A stretch of DNA of 64,000 nucleotides from a virus (taxonomy: Duplodnaviria > Heunggongvirae > Uroviricota > Caudoviricetes), in the IMG/VR virus record IMGVR_UViG_3300005512_005684, positions 167,003 to 231,002 of that record; one strand, written 5' to 3'. The position numbers were made by a program, and so were the translations under genes. Positions 12,492 through 64,000 of this stretch are shown in pieces. The number at the start of each line of letters is the position of its first letter. Position 1 is the first letter of the stretch. Below the pieces are notes generated by a model. It ran no database searches. It was not told where the DNA came from and was given only the letters and a program-made list of their open reading frames with translations.

Positions 12492-12494
12492 GTC

Positions 12495-12752
12495 ATGTTC
12501 CTTCGTCGAGTAGAACGGAAGTCAGAGCAACCTTCGATGTCAATGGACGAAGCGACGGTCAGAGCTAGGGAAGCAATGAAGAACAATGAAGAGGTGTCGT
12601 GCCCGGAGTGTGGTGAACTTGTGAACCTGGGAGACGTGGAAGCGGCTATGGAGCACATGAAGAAACACCCGGAGGCACTGGCGCGAGCGCAGCTTAGGAC
12701 GGCCGTACATAGCATGACCAAGACAGGGATTTTGCGAGAGGTTCGACCGTAA
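12495..12752 (+). CDS. small Zn-finger protein
   Basis: CPECG..HMKKH. Confidence 0.6.
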   Translation: MFLRRVERKSEQPSMSMDEATVRAREAMKNNEEVSCPECGELVNLGDVEAAMEHMKKHPEALARAQLRTAVHSMTKTGILREVRP

Positions 12753-13066
12753 TGGCAGAGACCATTGGACACCATTTACAGAACTTACGAAAGTCTCTCG
12801 GTTTGACTCTTCGAGACGTTCAGCGTCAAACTGGAGTGTCGAACTCGTTTCTGAGTCAGGTAGAGAATGGTCAGGCGGTGCCGTCTCCAGATAATCTTGT
12901 TCGGTTGTCGAAGGTGTATAACACGAGTTTTGTGGAACTTATGAGGAAGTCGGGACACACAGTCTTACCTGGTGTAGAGTTGCTCGACGGGTTGAGTGAC
13001 GAAGAGGTCGAGCAGGTAAAAGATTACGTTAGGGTATTGAGGGAAGGGCGCACAGACGAGGGTTAA
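12752..13066 (+). CDS. XRE-family helix-turn-helix regulator
   Basis: LQNLRKSLGLTLRDVQRQTGVSNSFLSQVENG. Confidence 0.85.
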   Translation: MAETIGHHLQNLRKSLGLTLRDVQRQTGVSNSFLSQVENGQAVPSPDNLVRLSKVYNTSFVELMRKSGHTVLPGVELLDGLSDEEVEQVKDYVRVLREGRTDEG

Positions 13067-13094
13067 GTTTTGCGTTCCTTACGGGAGAATAACG

Positions 13095-13827
13095 ATGTCT
13101 GAACAAGCTTTACAATGGGTAGAAAGAAAGCTGGGACCTGATGGTCAGCGAGGGCCAAAGCGTAAAACGGCTGAGTATGTCGCAGTGAAGATGGTTTTTG
13201 ACAGAGGGATAACTGATCTTTACGAGTTGTCAGAAAACACTGGTTTAGAACCAGGTCGTGTAGACCGCATCTGCTATGCGTTAGGTCTCAAGAGGACGAT
13301 TCGAGAGAATAAGCCTGGTAGGATTTCTAAGAAAGAGGTAAACATTCCGAGGGCGGAAATGGTTATTTCAGGGATGGTGTTAAAGGGGTGTAGTGTTTCA
13401 GAAGTTTGTATGAAATGCCGGTCGTGTCGAAATTGGAGATTTTGTCAAAGCACACCGCGGCGGGTTGACTTTTGCGTACAATCGGCTCAAGACGCGGTTG
13501 TGGTGTCGTGCACCGGTTCGGGCAGCAGTCGCCCGAGCGTGGTACACGGTGGATCGGGTGAAACTCGAAGCGTTCTGTTGCTATCTCTGTGAGGGACGTG
13601 TACCCGATTCGTTCAAGGACACAGTGACAACGACGGTGGTACGTTTTCGCGATTGGGTGATTCAATCCGGGCCGCGACGTTATTTCCAGGACGAGTTACG
13701 TGACCGGTGTACGGTGGCACTGGAATCGTTCTTGTCGGGTGAGGAAATCCCGGAAGGTCGGGAATGCCCTGCGGGGTATATGCCCTTTCCGATTGACAAC
13801 GAAGAGAAGATTTCTCTGGTCATTTAG
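13095..13827 (+). pseudogene. hypothetical protein apparently split by a +1 frameshift near 13413
   Basis: ORF 13095 loses protein-like character after EVCM; the next frame is open from 13414 (NAGRVEIGDFVKAH..RAAVARAWY..) to 13827 with no good start. Confidence 0.45.
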
Positions 13828-13845
13828 TTGACAGAAAGGACAACG

Positions 13846-28461: not shown

Positions 28462-29955
28462 ATGAAGTCGTCTCAGATGTTCGATGTTGACAGAGAGGGT
28501 TTGCGGAAGCTCCTGGAGCGTCGTGGCAAGGGAGCAATCGTAGCTGAGTTGATCTCCAACGCGTGGGACGAGCCTGGTGTCACGCGAGTGACGGTCAAGT
28601 TGGCTAAGCTCTCTGGGCGTCCGCTGGCAAAGCTCATAGTCGAGGACGATAGTCCGAACGGTTTCGTAGACCTGAGCCATGCCTGGACGCTTTTCGCTGA
28701 GTCCGTCAAAAAGGGCAACCCGGATCAGCGTGGTCGGTTCAACCTTGGCGAGAAACTCGTACTGGCGTTCTGTCAGGACGCGTCAATTGCGACGACCACG
28801 GGGACGGTCACGTTCAATGGGAATGGGCGTCAACACTTTCCGCGTCGGAAGCGGACGCGTGGGTCTGTCTTTGAGGCTCACATCCGCATGAACCAGGAAG
28901 AGTACTACGAGGTCGAGGACTTCGTGGGGCGTCTCATTGTCCCGGACGAGATCAAGACCATCTTCAACGGCCAGACCTTGGTTCGCAAGATGCTGGTCGA
29001 TACGTTTGATGCCACTCTCCAGACGGAGGTAGCTGACGACGAGGGTGTCCTGCGCCGGACGACGCGTGCGACGACAGTGAGGTTGTTCGTGCCTGGGGAA
29101 AACGAGACACCGCACTTGTACGAACTCGGTGTCCCGGTTGTTGAGTTTGACGGGAAGTACCACGTGGACGTGGGACAGAAAGTACCGTTGAACATGGAAC
29201 GCGATAACGTGACTCCGGCCTACGCTCGGAAGTTGCACACGTACACGTTCAACAGAGTCTTCGACGAACTCGACGGAGAGGACATGAACGAAGCGTGGGT
29301 GGCTGAAGCGACCGCTGACCCGGAAGTCGCTGACGAAGCAATCACGGCCTATGCCGATAAGAGATTCGGAGAGGAACGTGTGAGCTATGATCCGAGTGAT
29401 CCTGAAGCGAATCAGAATGCTTATGCACACGGCTCGACGGTCGTGACTGGTTCGCAGTTGGGAAAGAGTCAGTGGGACAACCTCAAGCGTGCCGGGGGAA
29501 TCGAGTCGGCGGGAACGAAGTTTCCGACTCCCAAGCCGTACTCGGATGACCCGAACGCGAAGCCTGCGAACATACTCACGGAAGCGCAGATGACGGACGG
29601 CATGAAGTTGATCCGTGATTACGCGAAGTGGGTAGCAGAGGAAGCCATTGGAATCGAGGTAGAGGTCGCGTTCGTTAAGACCAAGAACGACTTTGCTGCT
29701 TGTTGCGGTAGAACGTTCGAGGGTTGTGCGTCACTTGACTTCAACGTCCAGCGGCTTGGACAGAAGTGGTTCCAACAGGGGATCACGGCAATAGACGACT
29801 TGCTCATTCACGAGTTGGGTCACTACTTCACGAAGAGTCACCTCGACCCGGCCTACCACAAAGCGCTCACCAGGATCGGTGCAGCGTTGAAGCGGTTGGC
29901 TGTGGACGAGTCGAGGAAGATGCGCCGGTTCATTCAACGAGGGGAGGAACTCTAG
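28462..29955 (+). CDS. GHKL (Hsp90/MORC-like) ATPase with C-terminal HExxH motif
   Basis: ELISNAWDE (N box), VEDDSPNG, GRFNLGEK, GSVF; LLIHELGH. Confidence 0.75.
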   Translation: MKSSQMFDVDREGLRKLLERRGKGAIVAELISNAWDEPGVTRVTVKLAKLSGRPLAKLIVEDDSPNGFVDLSHAWTLFAESVKKGNPDQRGRFNLGEKLVLAFCQDASIATTTGTVTFNGNGRQHFPRRKRTRGSVFEAHIRMNQEEYYEVEDFVGRLIVPDEIKTIFNGQTLVRKMLVDTFDATLQTEVADDEGVLRRTTRATTVRLFVPGENETPHLYELGVPVVEFDGKYHVDVGQKVPLNMERDNVTPAYARKLHTYTFNRVFDELDGEDMNEAWVAEATADPEVADEAITAYADKRFGEERVSYDPSDPEANQNAYAHGSTVVTGSQLGKSQWDNLKRAGGIESAGTKFPTPKPYSDDPNAKPANILTEAQMTDGMKLIRDYAKWVAEEAIGIEVEVAFVKTKNDFAACCGRTFEGCASLDFNVQRLGQKWFQQGITAIDDLLIHELGHYFTKSHLDPAYHKALTRIGAALKRLAVDESRKMRRFIQRGEEL

Positions 29956-42698: not shown

Positions 42699-42756
42699 TT
42701 TACTTGGACAGTTGAGTACGTTACGGATCGGTTGGTCACTTAGTGGAGGAAGTGTC

Positions 42757-44115
42757 ATGGTGAACGTGGTGCGTAGGAAGAAATACATCCAGACCAATGT
42801 GGACGAAAGCCACAACAAGTTTTGGTACATAACCGAGTATGACGACGCGACCGTAGTGCGTGAGTGGGGAGCAGTTGGTACGAGGGGACAGAAAGACAGT
42901 CCAAAGAAGTCTTTCCCCTCTCAAGATGCAGCCAGCAAATTCTTCGACAAGGAATGCAAGGGGAAAGAGAAAGGGAAGAAAGACAAGAAAACCGGCCTGC
43001 GGAAGGTCTATACCGAACTCCAGGTCCTCGACGACGATGGACAGGGGGCAGTGGCACAAGGCACGGTGGCCAATGATTCGTTGTCGGATGTGGCGCATCG
43101 GGACATAAGTGGTGGTGACCCGATTGTCGGCGAACTCGTGGCCATGTTGGTTCGTCAGAACCAACACAATATCCTTACGAACACGACCATGAAGTACAGT
43201 GCGGCGACGGGCTTGTTCTCGACGGCGTGCGGAATTGTGACTCAGGCGTCGATTAACGAGGCTCGTAGTCTCCTGAATCAGTTGGTGCCATACGTGTCCA
43301 GTCAGCAATTCGAGGACACGCAGTACGCGCCGTTGCTGAATCAGTACTTGATGCTCATTCCGCAAAAGGTGAAACGTCAGCGGGGGAAGCTCGTGGCGTC
43401 ATTGATCTTCCCGGACGCCGAGGCGTTGCGAAAGCAAGACGAGATTCTGACTTCGCTACAAGCGTCTCTGGATACGTTACAGACGAGAACGAACGGGGGG
43501 AGTGACGCGGAGGTTGCCAAGGTCTTCGACGTGCGTGTGGCGCTTATCGAAGACGAGGAAGAGATCGAGCGGATCACTCGGAAATACATGGAAACTCGTA
43601 CGTCTATGCACACGTGCGCCCACCTGCGAGTGTCCCGAGTGTTCTCCATGAGGATTGGGAGCATGGTCGAACGCTTTGAGCGTGAGGGTGTGCCTCGCGG
43701 CAACATCTTTGAGTACTGGCACGGGTCTCGTACCAGTAATCTCCTGAGTATTCTTCACAAGGGTCTCATGGTGCCGCCGAAGTCTTCCGATCATGTTACA
43801 GGGAGACTGGTGGGAGACGGTCTGTACTTCAGTGACATTTCCACGAAGGCGTTGGGATACTCATACGGTTTCTGGAGTGGTGGAAACCAGAAAGACAATA
43901 ACCCATTCATGTTCCTCGCGGACGTGGCAATGGGTAAGGTCTTCGAGCCGACGAGTCTGGCCAACGATGGACCTTTCCCAGTGAGAGGATATGATTCGAC
44001 GCTCGCCCGAGCCGGAACAACGATTCGCGGACATCGGACGCTGAAGAACAACGAAATGATCGTGTACACGGTCGGACAGGTAAATCTCAAGCGCATGGTG
44101 GAGTTCACGTCTTAG
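42757..44115 (+). CDS. PARP1-like poly(ADP-ribose) polymerase (WGR + regulatory + catalytic domains)
   Basis: WGR: NKFW..EWGAVGTRGQ; regulatory: GIVTQASINEARSLL..NQYLMLIP; catalytic: WHGSRTSNLLSILHKGL..GDGLYFSD..KALGY..NNEMIVY. Confidence 0.92.
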   Translation: MVNVVRRKKYIQTNVDESHNKFWYITEYDDATVVREWGAVGTRGQKDSPKKSFPSQDAASKFFDKECKGKEKGKKDKKTGLRKVYTELQVLDDDGQGAVAQGTVANDSLSDVAHRDISGGDPIVGELVAMLVRQNQHNILTNTTMKYSAATGLFSTACGIVTQASINEARSLLNQLVPYVSSQQFEDTQYAPLLNQYLMLIPQKVKRQRGKLVASLIFPDAEALRKQDEILTSLQASLDTLQTRTNGGSDAEVAKVFDVRVALIEDEEEIERITRKYMETRTSMHTCAHLRVSRVFSMRIGSMVERFEREGVPRGNIFEYWHGSRTSNLLSILHKGLMVPPKSSDHVTGRLVGDGLYFSDISTKALGYSYGFWSGGNQKDNNPFMFLADVAMGKVFEPTSLANDGPFPVRGYDSTLARAGTTIRGHRTLKNNEMIVYTVGQVNLKRMVEFTS

Positions 44116-52464: not shown

Positions 52465-53157
52465 ATGAGCCGACCGACTTTGCTGGAAATCTTTCCGACG
52501 ATCCGCGGTGACACTCAGTCCGTCAAGGAAAGCCATTTTCTCCAGGTGTATGAAGAAATCTTTAGCCAGTTCCGTGACGACACTTTCACCTTGGTCGAAT
52601 TCGGGGTCCAGGCCGGTGGATCGGCCAAGCTCTGGATCGAGTACTTTCCCAACGTGGGGGTAGTCGGGGTGGACATTAACGTGAATCAATGCACATTCGA
52701 GCACGAACGTTTCCAGTTAGTCCAGGGAGATCAGTCGGATGTCGGGTTTCTTCGAGACTTGGGAAAGAGTCTCAGGAACGTGAAAGTGGTGATCGATGAT
52801 GCAAGTCATATCTCGGCTCACCAGATCGCGTGTCTCCAAACGTTTTTCCAGTTGGTCGAGACAGGTGGCTTTTACATTGTCGAAGATTTGCAGATGTCCT
52901 ACCGCGACGATGGTGAGTTCTGGGGCGGGGGTCGAGCGCACTGGGGAACGTGTGTCGAGTTTACCAAGTGGTTGATCGATGTGATCCACCTCCGTCATGT
53001 TGAAGGGAAGGGACAGTATTTGTCCAAGCGCGAGAGACTTTTCGAGGGACTCACCGGTATGCGAGTGTATCCTGGTTTGACGATCCTGGAGAAAGGGAAT
53101 CCAGAGGAACACATGCTGACAGGTGGTTTCTTGTCATGGAAGCAACCGTTACCTTAG
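52465..53157 (+). CDS. class I SAM-dependent (sugar-type) O-methyltransferase, paralog A
   Basis: LVEFGVQAGGS..GVDI..GDQSD..VIDDASH..YIVEDL..SY. Confidence 0.8.
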   Translation: MSRPTLLEIFPTIRGDTQSVKESHFLQVYEEIFSQFRDDTFTLVEFGVQAGGSAKLWIEYFPNVGVVGVDINVNQCTFEHERFQLVQGDQSDVGFLRDLGKSLRNVKVVIDDASHISAHQIACLQTFFQLVETGGFYIVEDLQMSYRDDGEFWGGGRAHWGTCVEFTKWLIDVIHLRHVEGKGQYLSKRERLFEGLTGMRVYPGLTILEKGNPEEHMLTGGFLSWKQPLP

Positions 53158-53169
53158 TGAGGACCCAAA

Positions 53170-53865
53170 ATGAGCAGACCGACTTTGAGAGACATCTACC
53201 CAACGATCCGCGGAAAGAGAGGCGATCATAACTTCAAGGCGGGCAAGGTACTCTACTACCTTGATGTGTATGATCGGTTGTTCGCACCATTTCGAGATCA
53301 GGAGTTCAACCTACTGGAGATCGGCGTACTTTTTGGCGGGTCTATCCAATTGTGGCTGGAGTACTTTCCGAAGGCAAGGATTTTCGGAGTTGATGTCAAG
53401 AACAACTGCTTGGTTAGTCATGAGCGATTCGAGTTCGTTCAGGGTGATCAGTCTGAAATGGCTTTTCTTCAAGAGTTGGGGGAACGAGCGGGGCCTTTCC
53501 AGGTGGTGATTGATGACGGTGGTCACCAGTACAAACAACAGATCGGTTCATTGATCCACCTCTTCCCTTTTGTGACGGAGCCCGGTATCTATGTCGTGGA
53601 AGACCTGATTACTTCCTACTGGGACACGGGACCTTTCTTCGGTGGTGTGGGAGAGGGGTGGACGACCGTGGAGTTCCTGAAGTCTCTCGTTGATCACGTG
53701 AATTGTGATAAGAGGAACCGAAGGGCGAAGACGTTTTCAAAGTTGGTCTCCATGCAGTTCTATCCGTGTATGGCAGTTTTGTTCAAGGATGATCCTGATA
53801 AGTTCAAGATCGAGTCGGTCAATTCAGACCGGTTGCCGTTGCCAACGCGAGCGCCCCATGAGTAA
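53170..53865 (+). CDS. class I SAM-dependent (sugar-type) O-methyltransferase, paralog B
   Basis: LLEIGVLFGGS..GVDV..GDQSE..VIDDGGH..YVVEDL..SY; both paralogs begin MSRPTL. Confidence 0.8.
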   Translation: MSRPTLRDIYPTIRGKRGDHNFKAGKVLYYLDVYDRLFAPFRDQEFNLLEIGVLFGGSIQLWLEYFPKARIFGVDVKNNCLVSHERFEFVQGDQSEMAFLQELGERAGPFQVVIDDGGHQYKQQIGSLIHLFPFVTEPGIYVVEDLITSYWDTGPFFGGVGEGWTTVEFLKSLVDHVNCDKRNRRAKTFSKLVSMQFYPCMAVLFKDDPDKFKIESVNSDRLPLPTRAPHE

Positions 53866-54043
53866 GTTTCCGACCGGAGATCAAGGTCAACGTTACGAGA
53901 TTCGGGCGATTCAGTCTGGGGAGGAAGTTGTGATCGGATGGTGTGAACGGAGGCCGGAAAAGTTGGTCGAGGCTGCGAAGGCTCACCCGGCGTGTTCGGA
54001 TGCTTGGCATGTTGACAGGAAACCAAAGGGGAAGAAAACATGA
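53858..54043 (+). CDS. small hypothetical protein
   Basis: Overlaps the upstream stop. Confidence 0.55.
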   Translation: MSKFPTGDQGQRYEIRAIQSGEEVVIGWCERRPEKLVEAAKAHPACSDAWHVDRKPKGKKT

Positions 54044-54162
54044 ACACATACCTGTATGATGCAATCGACTCGACAGGTGAAGAGATCAAGGGTGAGATCA
54101 AAGCCGAGAGTGTGTTGTATTTGGTTGGTCGTTGTATTTCTCTCAAGCCTATCTACGCATAG
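54040..54162 (+). CDS. 40-aa peptide resembling the PilC/GspF N-terminal cytoplasmic motif
   Basis: MNTYLYDAIDSTGEEIKGEIKAESVLYLVGRCISLKPIYA; ATGA overlap with upstream stop. Confidence 0.55.
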   Translation: MNTYLYDAIDSTGEEIKGEIKAESVLYLVGRCISLKPIYA

Positions 54163-54285
54163 TTCCCTGGAGGTGGACTCCGGTTTCGAGCGCACGCGGA
54201 AACCAATGGTGGACTTAGGGCGTGCAACCTCGGCCAGCCTTTCCAGTCGGTTCTTTTGGCATGTTCATTACGGAGGACGTGACAG

Positions 54286-54843
54286 GTGAAATTCCCAAAG
54301 ACATTCAATGAGCTTCCAGCGGAGTCTGCCAGCGTTGCGGCTGAACTGGGTGCAGCGGTGGGGAGGATCATGGGTGTGCTTGAGCAAATGGGTGTCGAGC
54401 ACAATTCGGTGGAAGTGGTGATCTGTGAAGAACAGGTCATGGTGCACCGAGACCGTGATACCGAGTCTCAGAGACGGGTACCAGGCTTCCAGTGCGATGT
54501 GGTGTGGATGGTGCCGTTGAACGACCGAGCGGAATACGGCTTCAACGAGTACTCCGGTGGCTACGGTTGTGCGACCCTATACTTTGCCGCGTCATGGACG
54601 GACTGCGAGGACGAGATCACTTCCCCGTACGTCGCCGTCCAGATGAACTCGTATGTGGGGGTGGACGATAACACGAAGCGGGAACGAATATGGTACGCAA
54701 ACGCAGTCCCGGAGTTTGTTCTGACTCCTTGCGTGCTCGCTACAATCGTGCAGGGCTATGAGGAAATGCAGGCTTGGTACTCGGTCTTGGATCGTGCGTT
54801 GGAGGTCCTCGACGGTGTGCCGACAGTGGGGAACGAGCAATGA
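54286..54843 (+). CDS. hypothetical protein
   Basis: GGAGG RBS + GTG. Confidence 0.65.
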   Translation: MKFPKTFNELPAESASVAAELGAAVGRIMGVLEQMGVEHNSVEVVICEEQVMVHRDRDTESQRRVPGFQCDVVWMVPLNDRAEYGFNEYSGGYGCATLYFAASWTDCEDEITSPYVAVQMNSYVGVDDNTKRERIWYANAVPEFVLTPCVLATIVQGYEEMQAWYSVLDRALEVLDGVPTVGNEQ

Positions 54844-55124
54844 GAAACCTGATCGAGTCGGTGACGGTCATGCTCGGAGTACTTGCGTCGTTCGTTGTTT
54901 ACCACCATGTGATTCGTACGGAGTACAAGTTTTGGATGTGGCTTTGGGCAGTCTTGGCGTTGGGGACAATGATGTTTGTGAGTTGGATTCTGACCGATAA
55001 GAAAAAGGGAACGAAGCCGGGTCGTTCGTTTTGTCTCTGGACGGGGATCGTATTTCCGTTGACCTGGCTTGTCATTCTCGGAGCCACTTTGTCAACACTC
55101 AGTAAATCCAAGAATCACTCTTGA
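54840..55124 (+). CDS. membrane protein (3 TM)
   Basis: ATGA coupling; hydrophobic segments. Confidence 0.6.
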   Translation: MRNLIESVTVMLGVLASFVVYHHVIRTEYKFWMWLWAVLALGTMMFVSWILTDKKKGTKPGRSFCLWTGIVFPLTWLVILGATLSTLSKSKNHS

Positions 55125-55217
55125 TATAGGAGGCGCTTAATACAGGACAATTCGTAGGGAACTTTCGTGTTGGTTTTTGCTACGTGTTTTGTGAACCCTC
55201 AGACGGAGGAGGTTGGT

Positions 55218-56078
55218 ATGCCATACCAAGGCAAAGAGCTTCATTGGCTCATTATCGATCCGCAGAACGACTTCTGCCCCGGTGGGGCGCTCGGAGTCCC
55301 CAACGCTGACGGTGACATGGCGCGGCTGGCCGCTGCTATGGAGCGGACGCGCGATGTTACGGATGACATTCACGTGACGATGGACAGTCACGCACAGTAC
55401 GACATCGGCCATCCGATGTTCTGGCGAATGAAGAACGGCAAGCATCCGGTGCCGTTCCAGGACCTGCTCGGTGCGGTTCCCGTCTCCACGATCACGGTCG
55501 AACACCTGGAGTCGGGCGAGGTCTTCCCGACCACTGACCCCAACCCGAAGCACGCCGGAGACCTGGACACGGTGTGGGGGTGGTGTCAACACTACCTGAC
55601 CGCGCTTCGCGACAACCAGCGGTACGAGTGCCAGGTCTGGCCGTATCACTGTATCAAGGGAACGCCGGGGTGGTGCATCCATCCTGCGTTGCTTGAATCG
55701 ATCCTGGCCTGGGAACAACGTCATGTGGGCATGGCCCCGATTATCACGAAGGGAAGTAATCCGATGACGGAGCACTACTCTGCCGTGAAGGCTGATGTTC
55801 CGACAGATGACCCGAGCACGCATCTGAACGAAGAGTTCATTGCTCTGATCGACAAGCCGAACGTACTCGTCCTCGTTGGCGGGATCGCCGGAAGCCATTG
55901 CGTGCGCTTCACCGTCGAGGACGTGGTGAACAACTTCGGCCCGGATCACCTCAAGAACCTCGTGTTGCTGACGGACGCCATGAGTCCGGTGCCGGGGTGC
56001 GAGGGGCTCCAGGAAGAGTTCGTTCGGAAGATGGTGGATGACCACGGTCTCCAGACGGCAGTGACGACGGATTTCTAG
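55218..56078 (+). CDS. pncA: nicotinamidase (isochorismatase/cysteine hydrolase family)
   Basis: IIDPQNDFCPGGAL, DSH, WPYHCIKGT.G, TKGSN, GIAGSHCV (D-K-C triad). Confidence 0.85.
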   Translation: MPYQGKELHWLIIDPQNDFCPGGALGVPNADGDMARLAAAMERTRDVTDDIHVTMDSHAQYDIGHPMFWRMKNGKHPVPFQDLLGAVPVSTITVEHLESGEVFPTTDPNPKHAGDLDTVWGWCQHYLTALRDNQRYECQVWPYHCIKGTPGWCIHPALLESILAWEQRHVGMAPIITKGSNPMTEHYSAVKADVPTDDPSTHLNEEFIALIDKPNVLVLVGGIAGSHCVRFTVEDVVNNFGPDHLKNLVLLTDAMSPVPGCEGLQEEFVRKMVDDHGLQTAVTTDF

Positions 56079-56138
56079 TTTGTCACGACTACGCGTACTT
56101 TTCACACGTTTCTACAAGTTCAAGACAGGAGAAATGTC

Positions 56139-56888
56139 ATGCCAATAATGGGCGCAGACATGGAACAGAAAACTGCCGGGAATTTCCAGTTCTCCGCAGT
56201 GAGGCCGGAAAAGCTCGGAGCGACGGAGTACACGGTTGCGTGTTTGGTCGTGGACAAGACGGGAAGTGTCCAGGAGTTTCGCGACCTGATCGCCAAGATG
56301 ATCGGCGAGATCGTTATGTCGTTGCAGCAATCGCCGCGGGCGAACAACCTGCTCCTGCGCGTGATTCTCTTCGACACCGACATCGAGGAAGTTCACGGCT
56401 TCACGCTGCTTGGCGATCTCGACATCGACAAGTACGACAAGGTGTACCCGCAGCGGCCTTGGGGGCGGACTGCTCTGTATGAGGCTTGCTGCAACGCCAT
56501 CGAGTCCATCGTCGCGTACTCCGAGGAACTCTTCGAGAACGGCTTCGAGGTCAATGGGTACCTGGGTGTGATCACCGACGGCATGGACAACGAGTCCGAG
56601 CGGAAGGGGATCACTACGGTTTCCGTGAAGGAAGCGACGACCAAGGCCATGCAGAGCGAAATGCTCGAATCACTCATGTCGATCCTGGTCGGTGTCAACC
56701 TGACGGAGCCGATGGCCGCGGATTACCTCGACAAGTTCCAGAAAGAGGCTGAACTCACGCAGTTCACGGACGCGGGAAGCGCGGACGCAAAGACGTTCTC
56801 GAAGATCGCCGGATTCATTTCGTCTTCGGCGGTCTCCCAGAGCCAGTCCATCGGAAGTGGCGCGGCTTCGCAGCCGTTGTCCATCTAG
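56139..56888 (+). CDS. vWA domain protein (TerY-like)
   Basis: MIDAS-like VVDKTGSV, GRTALYEA, VITDGMDNES. Confidence 0.85.
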   Translation: MPIMGADMEQKTAGNFQFSAVRPEKLGATEYTVACLVVDKTGSVQEFRDLIAKMIGEIVMSLQQSPRANNLLLRVILFDTDIEEVHGFTLLGDLDIDKYDKVYPQRPWGRTALYEACCNAIESIVAYSEELFENGFEVNGYLGVITDGMDNESERKGITTVSVKEATTKAMQSEMLESLMSILVGVNLTEPMAADYLDKFQKEAELTQFTDAGSADAKTFSKIAGFISSSAVSQSQSIGSGAASQPLSI

Positions 56889-56908
56889 TTTCAGTTCTCC
56901 GTGTTCGG

Positions 56909-56953
56909 CGGTGCGGGGTTTGCTTCACACCTCACGTTGGCGGCCCCGCACCG
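56909..56953 (+). other. intergenic hairpin
   Basis: CGGTGCGGGG/CCCCGCACCG 10-bp stem. Confidence 0.5.
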
Positions 56954-56981
56954 TCGTCATTTATCGCAAAGGAATTTCCGT

Positions 56982-57887
56982 ATGAATGCCGACGCACATT
57001 TTGAGATCGGTAGCACTCACACGGTATGTGAGGACTACGGGGTGGCTATGAACTGGAATGATGGTGAGCGATTGAGGATGGGAGAGGTCGGGGAGGCGGA
57101 TGACAGTGAAGTGGTTATCGCAGACGGTTGCTCAGACGAGCGGTCGGAATGTACTGACTTCGGTTCTCGTTTGCTTTGTCGGTCGTACATCGATCATGGT
57201 CGAGACACACAACAGTTTGTCCAGCGGGCGTATGCGATAGCCATTCAGCTTGGTTTGACTGAGCGGTGTTTGGATGCCACGTTCCTTCACCTGGACGCGA
57301 AAGGGAAGGTGTTGGTGTTCGGAGACGGATACGTTGTCCAGTGGACTCAGTTGGTTCCCTTCAGCTTCCGGTACGTTGAGATCGATCACCACGACTCACC
57401 GTGCTATCTCAGCTACGCGTTGAATGAACGTCGGTGGAAGCGTTACTTAGAGGGAAGGAAAGACATCGGTTCGTTTCTTGTTCAAGATGCCAACTGGACA
57501 AGGGGAGAGGATGGTGTGGTAGTGTTCAAGATCGCAAGGAATCGGTTTGGTATTCAGATCGAAGGTCTTGGTGACAGTGTGTGGACTCCTACAACACCCT
57601 TCGAGTTCCAGACACCACATGAGCCTGGGTACTTTACCTTCGTCATGACGGACGGGATCGGGACGTTTACGCGTGTGACGGAGACGGGGCAGAAAGAGAT
57701 CATGGAACCCGAGTTAGCCATTGCCCGGTTCTTGGAGAACGCACACAAGTTCAAAGTGTTCCAGGGGCGGTTCGTCCAGCGTCTTATGAGGCGCTTTCTC
57801 AAAGGTATGAAGGACGATGGTTGGCAACATGAGGACGACCTGACTATCGGCGGTATCTACTACGGCAAGCGCGATACAGGAGAATAA
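56982..57887 (+). CDS. PP2C-family protein phosphatase
   Basis: GSTH..CEDY, IADGCS, LDAT, FGDG, MTDG, EDDLT. Confidence 0.85.
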   Translation: MNADAHFEIGSTHTVCEDYGVAMNWNDGERLRMGEVGEADDSEVVIADGCSDERSECTDFGSRLLCRSYIDHGRDTQQFVQRAYAIAIQLGLTERCLDATFLHLDAKGKVLVFGDGYVVQWTQLVPFSFRYVEIDHHDSPCYLSYALNERRWKRYLEGRKDIGSFLVQDANWTRGEDGVVVFKIARNRFGIQIEGLGDSVWTPTTPFEFQTPHEPGYFTFVMTDGIGTFTRVTETGQKEIMEPELAIARFLENAHKFKVFQGRFVQRLMRRFLKGMKDDGWQHEDDLTIGGIYYGKRDTGE

Positions 57888-57891
57888 CTCA

Positions 57892-59625
57892 ATGGCCAAT
57901 CCACCAACGGCAATTCCGCAAGCGCCTGATCGAATCACGGTCTTCGTGAGGGGGAAAGGGAAGAAAGGGGTCACGCTCACGGAGAAAGAGTATGTGGTGA
58001 GTGGTGGTGAAGGACATATCTGGACTAAGAATGGTGTAGCGTTCAAGGTATGTCACAAGAACCGGATGATACCGCTCGGCAAGCTGGACGAACTCAGAGT
58101 CTTGAACGCTCCCTTTCTGGTCGTGCCCAAAGATATCCTTGAAGACAAGCGCGGCAAGCCTATCGGGTACACGATGCCGTTCGTGGATCATACTCACGCA
58201 ATGGCGGAACTATTCCCGACTGCGTTCTGGAATGACAACGGGCTTACACCGCCAATTGTTGCGGATGTCGTTCGGGAGTTTCAGGCTGGAGTCCAGTACG
58301 TGCATGGGAAGGGGATCAAGCTCGTGGACATTAACGAGTGGAACTTCCTTGTGACAGAGAAAGACTTCAGTCCGATTCACTTCATTGACACGAACTCGTA
58401 TGCAACTCCGAACTTCCCGGCGCAGGCAATCTCTCCGACCGTGCGGGACTATCACACCCAAGGTTTCAGTGAAGAGACCGATTGGTACTCCTGGGCGGTG
58501 GTGACGTTCTTCCTCTGGATCGGAATCCATCCGTTTCGAGGCCGGCACCCGGACTGTGGTGGGGATATTGTCGAGCGCATGAAGAAATCCGCGTCGGTGT
58601 TGGATCCCGGTGTCAAGATACCGGGAAACTGCCGGGGCTTTGATACGATCCCCGAGGGACTACGGAGGTGGTATATGGACTTGTTCCAGCAAGGCAAGCG
58701 TGGTGCCCCTCCGACCGATTACGAAGCCGTCAAGGCCGTTGCGACAGTAATGAGGAAGGTGGCTAGTACGGCACAGTTCAGCATCGAGGACATTCAGGAG
58801 TATCCCGAGGCTATCGTGCGCTTCCTGAGTGAGTCTCGACTCCCCACGGTCGTGACCCGGAGCGGAATTCACGTCGGCCCCCGAGTGGCTCACGCGTTTG
58901 TGCCCAAGTCGGTGATCGGTGTCGGGAACAAGGGGACGCCGGTTTTGTGTTCGATTAAGAACGAAACCATTCGATTAACCGACTTGAACACAGGTAACGA
59001 GCTAACGACTTCGGGTCTCCGTGGTGAGCGTTTGATGTCGTACTACGGACGTGTCTTCGTCAAGTGCGGAACGATGGTCAATGAACTTTCGCTTCGTGAA
59101 ATGGGAAGCACGTTCGTGGCCACGGCTCGACAGGTTGGTTCGGTCATGGAGAAATCGACTCGCATGTGCGACGGCGTGATCGTGACGAATATCCTGGGGG
59201 TGTGCTACGCATTGCTTCCGGGTGAGAGTCAAGGGTGTTACCAGGTGCGGCTCGACGAGATTGAGCCGGGTACGAAGATTCTCGATGCGAAGTACGACCG
59301 TGGTGTGCTCATGGTGATCGTCTCAAAGGGTGGTGTGTACTCGAAGCTGATCTACCGGTTCAATACAGCGTTCACGGATCGGTCGCTTCGGGTCGAGGAA
59401 GACGTGTCCGCCGACGCGCCGGTCTTCACCGTCCTGGAAAAAGGTGTGTGCGCGCACGTGCCCGAGGACGGCAAGGTCGAGTTGTTCGCGGTCGATCCGA
59501 AGTCCGGGACGATCAACGTGATCGAAGACCCGGTGATCAGTCTCGATATGAGGCTATTCAATGATGGAACGTCGGTGGTGTTCTCGACAGGGAACAAGTT
59601 GATGCGACTCCGAATGAAGTCGTGA
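57892..59625 (+). CDS. Ser/Thr protein kinase-like protein with C-terminal beta-rich domain
   Basis: SGGEGHIW, AFKV, LVDINEWNFLV, FIDTNSY, TDWYSWAV..GIHPFRG. Confidence 0.85.
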   Translation: MANPPTAIPQAPDRITVFVRGKGKKGVTLTEKEYVVSGGEGHIWTKNGVAFKVCHKNRMIPLGKLDELRVLNAPFLVVPKDILEDKRGKPIGYTMPFVDHTHAMAELFPTAFWNDNGLTPPIVADVVREFQAGVQYVHGKGIKLVDINEWNFLVTEKDFSPIHFIDTNSYATPNFPAQAISPTVRDYHTQGFSEETDWYSWAVVTFFLWIGIHPFRGRHPDCGGDIVERMKKSASVLDPGVKIPGNCRGFDTIPEGLRRWYMDLFQQGKRGAPPTDYEAVKAVATVMRKVASTAQFSIEDIQEYPEAIVRFLSESRLPTVVTRSGIHVGPRVAHAFVPKSVIGVGNKGTPVLCSIKNETIRLTDLNTGNELTTSGLRGERLMSYYGRVFVKCGTMVNELSLREMGSTFVATARQVGSVMEKSTRMCDGVIVTNILGVCYALLPGESQGCYQVRLDEIEPGTKILDAKYDRGVLMVIVSKGGVYSKLIYRFNTAFTDRSLRVEEDVSADAPVFTVLEKGVCAHVPEDGKVELFAVDPKSGTINVIEDPVISLDMRLFNDGTSVVFSTGNKLMRLRMKS

Positions 59626-59645
59626 CCTTTTACATGGAGGTCGAA

Positions 59646-59801
59646 ATGCACTACAACGAATGGAACCGTAGTAGACAGGAACAGGAAAGTCGAGGCCGGA
59701 AGGCTTTGGACGAACATGCCCAAAGCTGCTCGAAGTGTCGGAACTCCAAAACTAAGTTTTGTGAGGAGTGGAGGAAGCTCAAACGTCAGACGGTGTTTTA
59801 G
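59646..59801 (+). CDS. small Cys/His protein
   Basis: GGAGG RBS; H..SCSKC..FC. Confidence 0.45.
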   Translation: MHYNEWNRSRQEQESRGRKALDEHAQSCSKCRNSKTKFCEEWRKLKRQTVF

Positions 59802-59851
59802 ACTACCGTCTGTTCTGACGTGGCTAGAACTTTTACTTGGAGGATTAAACG

Positions 59852-60148
59852 ATGTCATGGATTTTCTATGCGGTCAATGCGTTCTGTTTTGGTACGTTGT
59901 TCTCGGCGTTTGGAGATTCTGCCCCGACTATTAAGAACAGTATCGGCGTTGCTTTTGTCGTCTCGTTGACTCTGACGGCAATTCCGTTGTTTGGGGCGAG
60001 CTATTGGATTGGGTGCGCCGTTCTGGTGTTTACTTTCTTCGCCTTCATGGGGACACAGGCAACACTGCGTATCAACATCCTAATGGTGTTGACTCTGATT
60101 TACGATGCCGTTGCGTTGTTCCCTCTTCAAGAACTCTTTTGGAAGTGA
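59852..60148 (+). CDS. membrane protein (multi-TM)
   Basis: Hydrophobic throughout; GGAGG RBS. Confidence 0.6.
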   Translation: MSWIFYAVNAFCFGTLFSAFGDSAPTIKNSIGVAFVVSLTLTAIPLFGASYWIGCAVLVFTFFAFMGTQATLRINILMVLTLIYDAVALFPLQELFWK

Positions 60149-60155
60149 TACCCCG

Positions 60156-60308
60156 ATGCACAACGTGACCTGGACATGTCCAAAGTGTGGTCGTGAGACC
60201 GTCTTTCGTCGTTTCTACACGAAGAGATCGGCGGAGCGTTGGGAGCAAACCGTTCGTGACCAAGTGTGTGAGTGGTACTATGGAGAACCATGCAATGGAG
60301 ACAGATGA
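60156..60308 (+). CDS. small Zn-ribbon protein
   Basis: WTCPKCG. Confidence 0.45.
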   Translation: MHNVTWTCPKCGRETVFRRFYTKRSAERWEQTVRDQVCEWYYGEPCNGDR

Positions 60309-60477
60309 AAAACCCCGTCGTGTTAGAGCCAGGATACGACGTACGGTAACGGAAGTTGCCATAGTCTTGCTAGACAAGGAAGGCAATGTAGAGGAACTTG
60401 GGGAAGTTCTTGAAGAACTTCAGATGGATGATGTTTTCGTTGAAGACATTCAAGCGGTACATTCAGTGCATTCATAA
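60295..60477 (+). CDS. small hypothetical protein
   Basis: Packed ORF. Confidence 0.45.
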   Translation: METDEKPRRVRARIRRTVTEVAIVLLDKEGNVEELGEVLEELQMDDVFVEDIQAVHSVHS

Positions 60478-60490
60478 CAGGGAGAAAGCA

Positions 60491-60889
60491 ATGTCTGATC
60501 CAGCCAAAGAACGAGAGGTAGTCCGTGGAATACATGAAGGTGAGTTGGGTATGCACCTTCACACGAACCTGCGAAAGTTCTGCGACTCCAGACCGACTAG
60601 CCTGGCGTACAACTTGGTTCACTTAGACTCGTGCAACGAAGCGTGGTACGGGTACCTGGATGCCGTGTGGGCGAAGCTCAAAGAGAGTGACAAGCCAGCG
60701 TGTGAAATCCTCAAGGAATGTGCTCATGACGAGGATGGGTCTCTCCAGTGGGGAGACAGTGCTCGGAACGCTTTGCGGATCGCTTTCGATTGCTTTGACG
60801 ATGGAGATTGGGTTGGCATGGCCGCGTACATTGATCCGAAAGACTGCGAGGTCGATGAACCTTTTCCAGCGGAAGACACGGAGGAGTAA
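60491..60889 (+). CDS. hypothetical protein
   Basis: GGGAG RBS. Confidence 0.6.
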   Translation: MSDPAKEREVVRGIHEGELGMHLHTNLRKFCDSRPTSLAYNLVHLDSCNEAWYGYLDAVWAKLKESDKPACEILKECAHDEDGSLQWGDSARNALRIAFDCFDDGDWVGMAAYIDPKDCEVDEPFPAEDTEE

Positions 60890-60893
60890 GACG

Positions 60894-62045
60894 ATGGATA
60901 GACTGATCGGTGACGAGTTACTCCTGGATAACGATCTCTACAAGTTCTCCATGATGAATGCGGTCTTGTGCCACTACGAAGGGACGCCGGTTCGGTACAA
61001 GTTGTTCAATCGAGGTGACACACTATTCAGTGCCTCTACGGCTTCCATGCTGCGCGAGCATGTGGACGCGATGGGTGGATACAGTCTCTCCGAGGGTGCC
61101 TTGGACTGGCTGCGTGCGACGTGTCCATACTTCACCGACGAGTTATTCCAGTACTTGTCAACGTATACACTCGACCCTTCAGAGGTCCGACTGACGTACG
61201 ACGACAACCTGGGGATCGAGGTCGAAGGTGCGTGGGAGAGTGCGATCATGTGGGAGGTGCCTTTGATGGCGGTGCTCAGTGAGCTTCACTTCCGGGATAC
61301 GCAAGTGGACTACTCGGAGTTTCGAGCCAATACAGTGTTGAAGAGAGAGTTGCTTCAGCGTCATGGTTGTATGCACGCGGATTTCTCGACGCGTCGTCGG
61401 TTCGCTCGGAGGTCGCAGGACGAGGCCGTGGACGCGCTCCGACACTCTGAGTGCTTCCTGGGTACGAGCAACGTGAGGCTGGCACGTAGCCGTAACTTGA
61501 ATCCTATTGGCACGATGGCACATGAATGGGTAATGGGTCTCTCGGCGATCCTGGGTCTCCGTCATGTGAATACGAAAGCTCTTGAAGCGTGGCAAGACGT
61601 GTTCGGGAGTTCATTGGGAATCGCGTTGACGGATACGTATACGACGGACGCATTTCTGCGAGAGTTCAACAAGGAACTGGCGGAATCGCGTGATGGTGTG
61701 CGACAGGACAGTGGTGATCCACATGCGTATCTCGCAAAGCTCGTCGCTCACTATCAAAGTCTCGGGATCGATCCGAATACGAAGACGATCATCTTCAGTG
61801 ACGGGTTGTCCGTGAGTAAAGCGGTGGCGATCAAGCTGGCGTGCGACTCGGCGGGTATCAAGTGTGGTTTCGGAATAGGAACTCATTTCTCAAATGACTT
61901 CGAGGACGTGACGCCGTTGAACATCGTGATCAAACTTGTCATGTGCGATGGTAAACCGGTCGCCAAGCTCAGCGACGATCCAGGGAAGGTTACAGGGGAT
62001 AACGCTCAAGCAATCCAGGACGCTCAAGATAGCATCCGTGTTTGA
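60894..62045 (+). CDS. pncB: nicotinate phosphoribosyltransferase
   Basis: DNDLYKFSM, WEVPLMA, DFSTRRR, GTSNV, GTMAHEW, LTDTY, VRQDSGDP, IFSDGL, FGIGT, LNIVIKL, KLSDDPGK. Confidence 0.93.
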   Translation: MDRLIGDELLLDNDLYKFSMMNAVLCHYEGTPVRYKLFNRGDTLFSASTASMLREHVDAMGGYSLSEGALDWLRATCPYFTDELFQYLSTYTLDPSEVRLTYDDNLGIEVEGAWESAIMWEVPLMAVLSELHFRDTQVDYSEFRANTVLKRELLQRHGCMHADFSTRRRFARRSQDEAVDALRHSECFLGTSNVRLARSRNLNPIGTMAHEWVMGLSAILGLRHVNTKALEAWQDVFGSSLGIALTDTYTTDAFLREFNKELAESRDGVRQDSGDPHAYLAKLVAHYQSLGIDPNTKTIIFSDGLSVSKAVAIKLACDSAGIKCGFGIGTHFSNDFEDVTPLNIVIKLVMCDGKPVAKLSDDPGKVTGDNAQAIQDAQDSIRV

Positions 62046-62058
62046 AAGGGGAACTACA

Positions 62059-63039
62059 ATGAAGCGACTACGATTCAAGTTCGGTATTGAATATGCGATT
62101 CGTGAGTTGACGAGCCAGGCGATCAACTTGGTAACGGAGGCCGGGAAGAAAGGGGTAGCACTAGGAGTCAGTGGTGGTGTGGATTCCGCAACGGCGTTGA
62201 GCGTATGGCATGAAGCGTTTGCTCGGTACAATGCTCATGAGTCGGAGGAAGACTGTCTTCGGGTGATCTGCTTACTGATCCCTTCGGATGCAAATGATCC
62301 ATCGGACTATGAAGATGGTGTCAGGGTCGTTGAGGGTGTTAGAGAGAAAGGTGGTGTGGTGGTTGAGCAACACGTGATTGATGTGGAACCGTTTGTTGCA
62401 CCGTTTCGCACGAAGGCTTTCAGCAAGTTGATGCCTGACAAGTTGCAGAAAACGTTTTGGGAGAACCTCTACTCCGAAATGCGAGCGGTGATTCTCAGTC
62501 GGGTGGCTGAGGCCCATAATTGCCTCTTGGCCGGGACAGGAAACTATGACGAGGATTACGTCCTCGGATATTACACGAAGCGTGGTGACGGTGCGGTTGA
62601 TAACAACCTCCTGGCCATGCTTCCGAAATCTCTTGTGCGAGTGTTGGCGGCGAACCTGGGTGTTGATTCTGAGATTGTGAACCGGGAGCCGACGGCGGGT
62701 CTCAGTGAAGGGCAGACCGACCGTGGTGACCTGGGGTACGATTACGAGGTGGCAAATGAAGTGTGGCTCGAAGCGTTGACTCACTCGGCGTACATGAGAA
62801 AGCATGACAGGGAGGGAGTGGCTCACAGCATCTTCGGTGCGCTCAAAGGCCATGTTGCGTCTGAGAGTGTCCTGGACGTTCTCCGGCGCAATGAGACCAC
62901 GGAGCACAAGCGCAAGCCGCCAACAATCGGTATGGTCTCCCTGGAACTGGAGGAAAATGGGAAGTTCTCTACCTGGAGTGGGGCCGGTGAAGACGGTATC
63001 TTCCGTTGTCCGGCAATTGGCTTTGAGGAAGAGGTCTGA
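62059..63039 (+). CDS. nadE: NH3-dependent NAD+ synthetase
   Basis: LGVSGGVDS, RAVIL, GTGNYDE..GYYTKRGDG, PTAGLSEGQTD..DLG, EHKR; no glutaminase domain. Confidence 0.9.
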   Translation: MKRLRFKFGIEYAIRELTSQAINLVTEAGKKGVALGVSGGVDSATALSVWHEAFARYNAHESEEDCLRVICLLIPSDANDPSDYEDGVRVVEGVREKGGVVVEQHVIDVEPFVAPFRTKAFSKLMPDKLQKTFWENLYSEMRAVILSRVAEAHNCLLAGTGNYDEDYVLGYYTKRGDGAVDNNLLAMLPKSLVRVLAANLGVDSEIVNREPTAGLSEGQTDRGDLGYDYEVANEVWLEALTHSAYMRKHDREGVAHSIFGALKGHVASESVLDVLRRNETTEHKRKPPTIGMVSLELEENGKFSTWSGAGEDGIFRCPAIGFEEEV

Positions 63040-63114
63040 ATTACTCACAGTTAATTTTCTTTTTCTCCGTGCAAATAGACAGAGGTATTTCTGACTGGAC
63101 TTGGAGAAAAAGAG

Positions 63115-63678
63115 ATGACTGAGACGTTACATTCCTGCGAGCTTGTCTTTGATCCGCAGACCAGAACCTTTGAGGAAGTGTCCACAAGGGAAATGAGGAT
63201 TGCCTCGAAGATGTTGAATTTCGGGGAAGGTCAAGGGTCAGAGGTAGTGCCGCAGTTCAAGCGTCAGATGGAACCGGGAGGCATGATCATTATGTCCACC
63301 GATGTCAATGCAATGGCCGGTGGTGGTCTTACGGGGAAACTCAAGGCTCTTGTGAAGACGACGCTTAACAGACTCTTTCGCAGCGACAAGGCCAAGAAAG
63401 TGATCAAGGATTTCTTCAAGTCTTGGGGAATGAGTGCCGGAATGAGTATTGGTAGGAGTTTCAACGGCGTGTTCTATGATGCTGACGAAGACGTGACCTA
63501 TGACGAGAACAGCTTCACCGTGGACTTGAAGGGTGTACCCTTCCCGTTGGTCTCGGCTATTGGTGCTTCGTTGGCGAAGGCGTTTGATCAAAAGTCGGTC
63601 TTGGTAGAGGATAATCGTTCGGGTACGGTCTTTGAGATCGGCCCGGCAGTTAGACCGCGACGGGTCGCGGTAGCTTAG
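63115..63678 (+). CDS. hypothetical protein
   Basis: 187-aa ORF with GGAG RBS. Confidence 0.65.
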   Translation: MTETLHSCELVFDPQTRTFEEVSTREMRIASKMLNFGEGQGSEVVPQFKRQMEPGGMIIMSTDVNAMAGGGLTGKLKALVKTTLNRLFRSDKAKKVIKDFFKSWGMSAGMSIGRSFNGVFYDADEDVTYDENSFTVDLKGVPFPLVSAIGASLAKAFDQKSVLVEDNRSGTVFEIGPAVRPRRVAVA

Positions 63679-63698
63679 TATGAAGTTGGTGGGACAAA

Positions 63699-64000
63699 AT
63701 GGACAGGAAGCAACAAGAGAGAATCCTGGAGTTGATCCAGAGTGACGAATGGCCAAAGGCTGTTCCTGATCACTTGCTCGTGGACGAACGTTCGGAGCGA
63801 GCCAAACGTGAGCGTGCACGCGCGACGATTGACCTTGCGGGTCTGAATGTCACTGAGCAAAAGGTTCTGGACTTCGGGTGTGGTCAAGGTCATGTTACGT
63901 TGGAAGCGGCGGGGACTGCGGCACTCAGTGTTGGCTTCGACATCGAAGGGCAGTGGGACGACAGCGGGAATGGATACGTGTTGACAACAGATTTCAGTGA
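63699..64000 (+). CDS. class I SAM-dependent methyltransferase (3'-partial)
   Basis: MDRKQQERILE..KVLDFGCGQG..VGFDI; runs off the window end. Confidence 0.7.
   Translation, partial: MDRKQQERILELIQSDEWPKAVPDHLLVDERSERAKRERARATIDLAGLNVTEQKVLDFGCGQGHVTLEAAGTAALSVGFDIEGQWDDSGNGYVLTTDFS

Follow-up and report, generated by a model that had tools for sequence, protein, structure and literature searches.

The stretch of DNA analysed here (the window) comprises 64,000 nucleotides and corresponds to bases 167003-231002 of the IMG/VR virus record IMGVR_UViG_3300005512_005684, which is 331,348 bp long. Positions 55218-63039 of the window are proposed to encode a set of genes that recycles nicotinamide to NAD+ by the deamidated (Preiss-Handler type) route, that lacks the adenylyltransferase NadD and would depend on that of the host, and that would be coupled to a phosphorylation-based switch; the probability of this reading is put at roughly 0.6. 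In this scheme, a long-form nicotinamidase-like enzyme would convert nicotinamide into nicotinate and ammonia, and PncB would then combine nicotinate with phosphoribosyl pyrophosphate (PRPP), with ATP coupling, to give nicotinate mononucleotide (NaMN). Host NadD would turn NaMN into nicotinate adenine dinucleotide (NaAD), a step assigned to the host because the phage record encodes no such enzyme, and the phage NadE would use free ammonia to convert NaAD into NAD+. A triad formed by a vWA protein, a PP2C-type phosphatase and a kinase fused to a beta-propeller would most likely act on the nicotinamide salvage step as a phosphorylation switch or as a scaffold. We infer the substrates, the dependence on host NadD, the role of the triad and the reason for carrying the set. 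A first-pass annotation, made from the sequence alone, had already proposed the order nicotinamide, nicotinate, NaMN, (NaAD) and NAD+, and the three enzymes fit this route; its idea that NadE could reuse the ammonia released by the nicotinamidase is correct in its stoichiometry, and nothing beyond that speaks for it.

The nicotinamidase-like gene (55218..56078, + strand) is the first gene of a four-gene cassette and encodes a long-form, metal-dependent cysteine hydrolase of 286 amino acids. Its start at 55218 is exactly that of the first-pass annotation, which had also positioned pncB and nadE correctly on the + strand. The predicted catalytic triad, formed by D14, K178 and C228, is invariant in an alignment of 18 homologs and aligns to D8, K96 and C138 of M. 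tuberculosis PncA (3pl1). The metal ligands D56, H58, H65 and H144 are invariant in these homologs as well, the last of them being located in a WPxHC motif and aligning to H71 of 3pl1. In searches with hidden Markov models (HMMs), PncB and NadE are above their curated cut-offs, whereas the nicotinamidase-like protein is below both of its own (20.1 bits vs 27 for PF00857 and 52.5 vs 174 for NF008623), being the weakest of the three enzyme calls by this measure and relying on its residues and its structural model. This AlphaFold (AF2) model has a mean pLDDT score of 78.8, and a Foldseek search with it against the PDB places nicotinamidases in all of ranks 1-10, with a target template modelling (TM) score of 0.71-0.75 for nine of them and of 0.49 for a longer Drosophila chain. 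Biuret hydrolases, RutB and similar isochorismatase-fold enzymes are found below the nicotinamidases in this ranking. The protein is a member of a large long-form subfamily of about 265 amino acids (3943 matches), with an insert of about 70 residues. The product is best called nicotinamidase-like, with nicotinamide as its probable substrate judging from residues and model, and the tie of the cassette to NAD metabolism, presented below, supports this assignment by context.

With the starts of the three genes set at their conserved cores, PncB (60894..62045, +) is identified by HMMs as a class-I (ATP-coupled type) nicotinate phosphoribosyltransferase (PRTase) of 383 amino acids. It scores 390.9 bits with TIGR01514 (cut-off 269.55) and 415.1 with NF003704 (cut-off 379), harbors both Pfam NAPRTase domains (PF04095, 218.9; PF17767, 97.9) and contains the AHEW, TDTY and RQDSG strings in its translation. 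It is the sole NAPRTase-family (PF04095) gene of the record, and its score above the TIGR01514 cut-off makes it a PncB equivalog and not Nampt, in agreement with the initial assignment. NadE (62059..63039, +), encoded 13 nt after pncB, is a single-domain, ammonia-type NAD synthetase of 326 amino acids with a C-terminal extension of about 45 amino acids. It matches TIGR00552 with 129.2 bits (cut-off 63.65) and PF02540 with 132.8 bits, and its SGGVDS P-loop is present and aligns to the structures 2e18 and 3fiu. No glutaminase (nitrilase-like) domain is fused to it and no other Pfam match was found in it; a separate glutaminase subunit was not searched for.

The origin of NadE appears to differ from that of its neighbour. 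Its best NCBIfam model is PRK13980, which represents the archaeal-type single-domain branch, and its best sequence matches in the PDB are P. horikoshii NadE (2e18, 77 bits) and the Francisella enzyme (3fiu, 76.6 bits). Its nearest homologs are found in metagenome-assembled genomes of DPANN archaea, at 41-45% identity, in operons encoding a PRTase, an isochorismatase and NadE, and a single-sequence NadE scan of IMG/VR gave no matches. Compared with the other phages that bear the cassette, NadE is only about 30% identical and PncB 42-46% identical, suggesting an independent addition of NadE beside PncB. The closest NadE homologs lie on a 262-kb metagenome contig (locus L011, 8187-10861) in an archaeal-looking operon with a PRTase (QRPTase_N) and a short isochorismatase; this operon is followed, at 12000-15583, by MoxR-type AAA_5 and vWA genes and by a second, weak isochorismatase-like gene of 295 amino acids.

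The three enzymes had initially been described as one co-oriented block. They do share their orientation, but nearly all coding of the 331-kb record is on one strand, so that this is uninformative, and they are not contiguous, 4.8 kb lying between the nicotinamidase-like gene and pncB. This gap is occupied by three conserved genes and about five small open reading frames (ORFs). The first of the conserved genes and second of the cassette (56139..56888, +) encodes a vWA protein of 249 amino acids with a conserved metal-ion-dependent adhesion site (MIDAS), whose residues D39, S43, T111 and D147 show at least 90% conservation across 142 homologs; its neighbours in the Atlas, by feature as well as by structure, are vWA clusters (TM 0.90). 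The third cassette gene (56901..57887, +; GTG start at 56901, alternative ATG at 56982) encodes a PP2C-type phosphatase of 328 amino acids, in which the metal-binding motifs D45, D75-G76, D142-G143, D251-G252 and D312-D313 are conserved. Its Atlas neighbours are PP2C_2 clusters (TM 0.77), and a homolog in a chromosomal locus (L046) is above the PF13672 cut-off. The fourth gene (57892..59625, +) encodes a Ser/Thr-kinase-like domain (residues ~1-285) followed by a C-terminal beta-propeller (~290-577). The match of the former to Pkinase is weak (22.2 bits), its residues G38-G39 (Gly loop), K52, D146, N151 and D166 are conserved, and the Atlas neighbours are kinase clusters, mostly viral. The C-terminal domain, which is all-beta and comprises about 290 residues, is modelled with a pLDDT of 80-93 and matches WD40-type propellers. 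The idea that the missing adenylyltransferase could be hidden between the nicotinamidase gene and pncB was rejected, given the identity of these three genes.

The small ORFs (59622..60889, +), recognized from the ORF list and the sequence, comprise a Cys-rich ORF of 51-59 amino acids, a membrane protein of 98, a CxxC protein of 50-67, an ORF of about 62 amino acids that matches phrog_25313 (3.4e-16) and an ORF of 132 amino acids that ends 4 nt before pncB. None of them has homologs in 160 related loci, so that they fall outside the conserved unit. In a promoter and terminator scan of positions 54000-64000, counts were at or below the shuffled expectation, and operon boundaries cannot be defined from it.

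The gene order of the cassette was first seen around a nicotinamidase homolog on a 529-kb metagenome contig, and its conservation was then measured in the 80 best cellular and the 80 best viral loci with such a homolog, whose six-frame ORFs were searched with profiles built from the window proteins. Cassette counts refer to the loci flanked by 7 kb or more on either side (66 viral and 29 cellular) and cover the nearest relatives only. The vWA gene follows the nicotinamidase-like gene in 63 of these viral loci and in 28 of the cellular ones; PP2C is present in 61 and 17, the kinase in 59 and 24, and all three in 57 and 17, respectively. The order is nearly always nicotinamidase, vWA, PP2C and kinase, on one strand. 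When the sample is anchored on the kinase instead, the nicotinamidase-like gene is found in 66 of 70 viral loci, some viral contigs being common to both samples. On the basis of these two sets of counts, the four genes constitute one unit, in which the nicotinamidase is linked to the triad as tightly as the triad members are to one another. The first-pass annotation, which grouped the nicotinamidase with PncB and NadE, left this cassette unremarked, and the closest partners of the enzyme are instead the vWA, PP2C and kinase genes. No paper describing a nicotinamidase linked to vWA-PP2C-kinase genes was found in a literature search.

The whole cassette is in turn tied to NAD metabolism, as indicated by the proximity of other NAD genes, by their interleaving with the cassette and by the regulator upstream of it. 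Of the 66 viral loci, 24 (36%) have PncB at a distance of up to 8 kb from the cassette, as do 5 of the 29 cellular ones (17%), whereas a single-copy gene placed by chance would be expected in well under 1% of loci. Within the same distance, NadE is found in 15 of the 66 viral loci and a NadD-like gene in 16 of the 80. In some phages the genes are intermingled, the order being nicotinamidase, vWA, PncB, NadE, PP2C, NadD-like and kinase in two loci (L111 and L112), and nicotinamidase, vWA, PP2C, PncB, NadE and kinase in a third (L183). In complete Capsulimonadaceae chromosomes, PncB comes directly after the kinase gene, in an ordinary chromosomal setting. NrtR (NUDIX plus NrtR_WHD), an ADP-ribose-responsive repressor of NAD genes (PMC2330246), is encoded upstream of the cassette in 10 of 10 tested bacterial loci, immediately so in most of them; a profile detects full-length NrtR in 19 of the 80 cellular loci and 5 of the 80 viral ones, and the phage studied here gives no match to it.

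It could be argued that the window holds two unrelated neighbours, namely a signalling or conflict module resembling TerY-P, whose hydrolase would serve as an effector or a sensor and act on something besides free nicotinamide, and a PncB-NadE pair that would boost nicotinate salvage by the host. Indeed, the cassette is conserved much more strictly than its association with PncB or NadE, the two units are kept apart in the window by five small ORFs that are not conserved, and the viral contigs with the closest PncB relatives have a short canonical PncA and no triad. Furthermore, the vWA-PP2C-kinase triad is known as TerY-P, including stand-alone anti-phage versions (PMC11090510). The idea is nevertheless judged unlikely: the frequencies of PncB near the cassette are far above those expected by chance, several phages have NAD genes intermingled with those of the cassette, NrtR stands at its head in bacteria, and the hydrolase keeps the nicotinamidase-type metal site that binds the pyridine nitrogen and resembles nicotinamidases more than other enzymes of the isochorismatase fold. 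In addition, no PADLOC model matches any of the proteins (four cassette proteins, E <= 0.01).

According to the same source, the TerY-P triad combines a vWA protein of the TerY-like kind with a PP2C phosphatase and a Ser/Thr kinase (Anantharaman et al. 2012, Gao et al. 2020, via PMC11090510). Like it, the genes described here are adjacent and on the same strand, and their MIDAS, PP2C and kinase catalytic residues are intact. In contrast to TerY-P as outlined there, the kinase is fused to a WD40-like beta-propeller and not to a zinc ribbon or an OB fold (the latter in the defence versions), the nicotinamidase-like gene forms an obligate fourth part of the unit, and the surroundings are those of NAD metabolism.

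With regard to the adenylyltransferase, the first-pass annotation had found no NadD, NadM or NadR in the window, and this absence now extends to the whole record. No match to PF01467, which covers the NadD/NadM/NadR type, exists in the 331 kb, the control being positive in 14 of 14 genomes; two phage adenylyltransferase (NadD/NMNAT) queries at maximum sensitivity retrieved nothing credible from the record, and a profile built from 13 phage NadD-like genes, also at maximum sensitivity, gave a best E-value of 1.9. One candidate, an ORF of 497 amino acids (28462-29955), was brought up by the NMN adenylyltransferase (NMNAT) of phage Phosso (phmmer E 0.017) and discarded, since the alignment does not cover the nucleotide-binding motifs and the ORF is matched by neither Pfam nor PHROG models; it lies on the + strand just after an SNF2-like helicase gene (25772-28096). 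A PF01467 match is present in each of five other large phages that carry the cassette together with PncB and NadE; one of these matches scores under the family cut-off, and in four of the five phages the match is inside the same locus. The full four-enzyme pathway appears to exist in relatives, because related large phages carry the same genes and a NadD-like adenylyltransferase in one cluster, and by its gene content the phage studied here would represent a NadD-less variant. Likewise, a complete 405-kb phage that has terminal repeats encodes PncB, NadE and a short PncA-like protein and gives no match to PF01467. NadD is essential in the host, and adenylylation of NaMN would most likely fall to the host enzyme.

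A different solution, also mentioned in the first-pass annotation, would be that NadE amidates NaMN directly, acting as a nicotinamide mononucleotide (NMN) synthetase as in Francisella, so that NaMN would give NMN and host NadR or NadM would finish the route. The phage encodes no NaMN adenylyltransferase, and 3fiu is about equal to the best canonical match of NadE; this equal similarity to 3fiu and 2e18, however, does not discriminate between the two activities. The enzyme belongs to the archaeal single-domain branch (PRK13980, DPANN), whose characterised member from M. jannaschii uses NaAD and has no detectable NMN synthetase activity on NaMN (PMC3376133). An adenylyltransferase would still be needed after direct amidation, which leaves the missing gene unexplained, and a NadD-like gene is present in related phages that have the same cluster. 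Nothing in the data backs direct amidation, which is considered very improbable.

Several points weigh against a NadD-less recycling set that relies on the host. The nicotinamidase-like protein is below both HMM cut-offs and has the insert of about 70 residues, and its substrate could be another pyridine amide, e.g. NMN or nicotinamide riboside. Five unrelated small ORFs split the cassette from pncB-nadE and neither promoter nor terminator signals exceed what chance would give, so that co-transcription is only putative. The cassette has neither PncB nor NadE within 8 kb in 42 of the 66 viral and 24 of the 29 cellular loci, and it need not serve NAD+ synthesis as such. It is not obviously economical for a phage to carry NadE while relying on host NadD. 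Finally, the record bears the label 'provirus' and stops within a repeat-rich gene, and a NadD gene may lie beyond the cut ends, although CheckV estimates a completeness of 99%.

The reason why a phage would carry such a set may lie in its own consumption of NAD+. The record encodes a full-length NAD-dependent DNA ligase, LigA (13828-15897, +; phrog_3869, 4.5e-130), an enzyme type that consumes NAD+ and releases NMN. It also encodes a WGR-PARP protein (42712-44115, +; PF00644 79.9 bits, WGR 33 bits), in addition to three more weak PARP-like matches, at record positions 106991, 110146 and 152069, and two Nudix genes; no PARP match was obtained in any of 14 control prokaryote genomes. Judging from LigA, the WGR-PARP and the PARP-like genes, the phage is probably a heavy NAD+ user. 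ADP-ribosyltransferases release nicotinamide, which inhibits them, and clearing or recycling this product would therefore serve the phage's own enzymes and would also offset host NADases. Possible purposes of the gene set are to refill the NAD+ used by the ligase, PARP and ADP-ribosyltransferases, to clear inhibitory nicotinamide and/or to withstand NADase defences of the host.

Depleting NAD+ is one of the main ways in which bacteria defend themselves against phages and, to our knowledge, all phage countermeasures proven so far use amidated routes. NARP1 (Adps plus Namat) and NARP2 (Nampt plus NMN adenylyltransferase) are of this kind, and the paper describing them does not mention PncA, PncB, NadE or nicotinic acid (10.1101/2024.02.11.579819); NARP3, reported in 2026, consists of PnuC and a NadR-like enzyme (PMC13464706). 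Neither Nampt nor Namat is encoded in the record, and PRPS-like (PF13793), PnuC (PF04973) and NMN deamidase (CinA/PncC) genes are absent as well. For NARP1, PF13793 gives no match and the only PF04095 gene is pncB; for NARP2, both Nampt and an NMNAT (PF01467) are absent; and for NARP3, neither PF04973 nor PF01467 has a match. In view of the absence of Nampt, Namat, PRPS-like, PnuC and CinA genes, the gene set is the only NAD-rebuilding equipment of the phage.

These observations leave room for a dedicated counter-defence function, in which NAD+ would be rebuilt from the nicotinamide freed by Thoeris, DSR, SIR2-HerA and similar host NADase effectors through a fourth, deamidated pathway. That phages benefit when NAD+ is rebuilt is shown by NARP1, NARP2 and NARP3 (10.1101/2024.02.11.579819; PMC13464706), none of which is encoded by this phage, so that it would depend on the present set; the same genes recur in many large phages, and the bacterial cassette sits behind NrtR, which responds to a product of NAD+ cleavage, ADP-ribose. 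On the other hand, no experiment on the deamidated route in phages was found in a literature search, and the route, with four steps, PRPP and three ATP-dependent reactions, one of which the host supplies, looks slower than NARP1 or NARP2. Moreover, the PARP, the PARP-like genes and LigA of the phage itself account for a demand for NAD+ and for the removal of nicotinamide with no recourse to defence, and the cassette also occurs with PncB in an ordinary bacterial chromosomal setting. By analogy with the NARP systems, counter-defence is plausible as a rival or additional role, and the data do not separate it from supply of the phage's own enzymes; as a dedicated function it is regarded as possible but rather doubtful. 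A more elaborate model would make the cassette a sensor-coupled switch, in which nicotinamide or a ligand derived from ADP-ribose would signal NAD+ cleavage by binding to the propeller or the vWA protein and recycling would be turned on by phosphorylation. Large phages would have captured this switch without the repressor NrtR, and it would give them a fourth, deamidated system for reconstituting NAD+ in the face of NADase defences, whether or not the phage encodes NadD. This model is speculative, and we hold it to be improbable in its complete form.

The description of the set as a candidate third NAD-reconstitution pathway in the first-pass annotation is outdated, since NARP3 has already been named (PMC13464706) and Preiss-Handler clusters have been reported from jumbo phages. 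A metagenomic study published in Microbiome in 2024 describes 'NAD-jumbo phages' with such clusters (pncB-nadD-nadE, e.g. Kuafu_71) and mentions phage pncA (PMC11662467); a 2022 survey of viral NAD systems deals with the nicotinamide/NMN route only (PMC9503650). Among cultured jumbo phages with GenBank annotations, Sinorhizobium phage Phosso has NadE, PncB, NMNAT and an unnamed hydrolase in one cluster and Agrobacterium phage Atu_ph07 is annotated with PncB; a 735-kb phage has PncB adjoining NadE. The enzyme trio as such is a further member of a reported kind. Phosso, a cultured phage of 469 kb, carries a same-strand run (PV764938.1, 263783-280973) of NadE, PncB, a MutT-like Nudix, NMN adenylyltransferase, a 215-aa 'hydrolase' and a nucleoside deoxyribosyltransferase, and could serve as a culturable model for the nicotinate route.

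With the NAD-jumbo phages of PMC11662467 and with Phosso and Atu_ph07, the present record shares the very large phage genome, the clustered PncB and NadE and the NAD+-consuming enzymes. Unlike the NAD-jumbo phages, it has no NadD/NMNAT, its NadE is of the DPANN-like archaeal type, and its long-form nicotinamidase sits in a vWA-PP2C-kinase cassette, which goes unmentioned in the searched passages of that study. The same three enzymes are clustered, with nadD located elsewhere, in the pncA-pncB1-nadE operon of Pseudomonas, which represents the bacterial salvage pathway I (PMC7318152), and in NrtR-regulated NAD operons (PMC2330246), the latter also resembling the bacterial relatives of the cassette in having NrtR upstream. 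In contrast to these bacterial operons, the genes described here belong to a phage, have no NrtR, include a signalling triad after the nicotinamidase and encode a nicotinamidase with the insert of about 70 residues. Like NARP1-3, they are phage genes for enzymes that would raise NAD+ from breakdown products or precursors; unlike these systems, which are amidated and experimentally proven, the putative route passes through nicotinate and is one step short. As far as searched, no paper describes the unit of nicotinamidase, vWA, PP2C and kinase, its association with NAD genes or the variant lacking NadD. A widespread nicotinate route in phages would add a new branch to NAD+ counter-immunity, especially in the NadD-less version, in which it is linked with kinase, phosphatase and vWA genes, and it would, if true, provide the first metabolic context for a TerY-P-like triad. 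The genes are few and their catalytic residues are clear, which makes the system tractable in E. coli.

The record represents a very large, uncultured jumbo phage. The large terminase TerL (record 259890-261782, +; phrog_2, 1.6e-18) and the portal protein (record 263225-265147, +; phrog_16240, 6.5e-13) were picked up by a PHROGs search about 30-35 kb downstream of the NAD gene set on the same strand; the terminase model PF03237 gives no match on the record. GC skew is strong, positive and uniform across all 331 kb, and GC content is uniform too. The 64-kb window has no tRNA genes, and its neighbouring genes are of phage type (LigA, helicases, a CCA-adding enzyme, PARP and PHROG families); a megablast of the region against GenBank phages returned no match. 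The viral origin assumed in the first-pass annotation, for which a cellular contig would have been fatal, is thus upheld by the terminase and portal genes. A host flank or a mis-binned contig with ordinary bacterial salvage genes would be in keeping with the 'provirus' label of IMG/VR, and cellular homologs with comparable identities of 41-47% exist for the cassette as well as for PncB and NadE. Nevertheless, the terminase and portal genes downstream, the uniform strand bias and GC, the absence of tRNA genes from the window and the phage-type neighbours rule this origin out for practical purposes, and the apparent origins of NadE and PncB differ, so that cellular DNA is an extremely improbable explanation.

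Some further features of the record may be pointed out. Its 3' end (331150-331348) lies inside a collagen-like GVTG repeat tract, possibly as a result of a cut within a gene, and upstream of this end an ORF of 2156 amino acids (record 318061-324531) has a weak tape-measure match. In the window, the CCA-adding-enzyme-like protein (5347-7359, +) has 670 amino acids and comprises PolyA_pol head, RNA-binding and HD domains, preceded by about 200 extra N-terminal residues without a family match. An adjacent pair of methyltransferase-like genes, CmcI-like (52465-53157, +) and FtsJ-like (53170-53865, +), is located about 1.4-2.8 kb upstream of the cassette. Directly after nadE, an ORF of 187 amino acids (63115-63678, +) has a weak match to a S-adenosylmethionine (SAM) lyase family (PF23780, E 9e-4) and another weak match to a PHROG named SAM-dependent methyltransferase, and its product could be an anti-restriction enzyme that degrades SAM.

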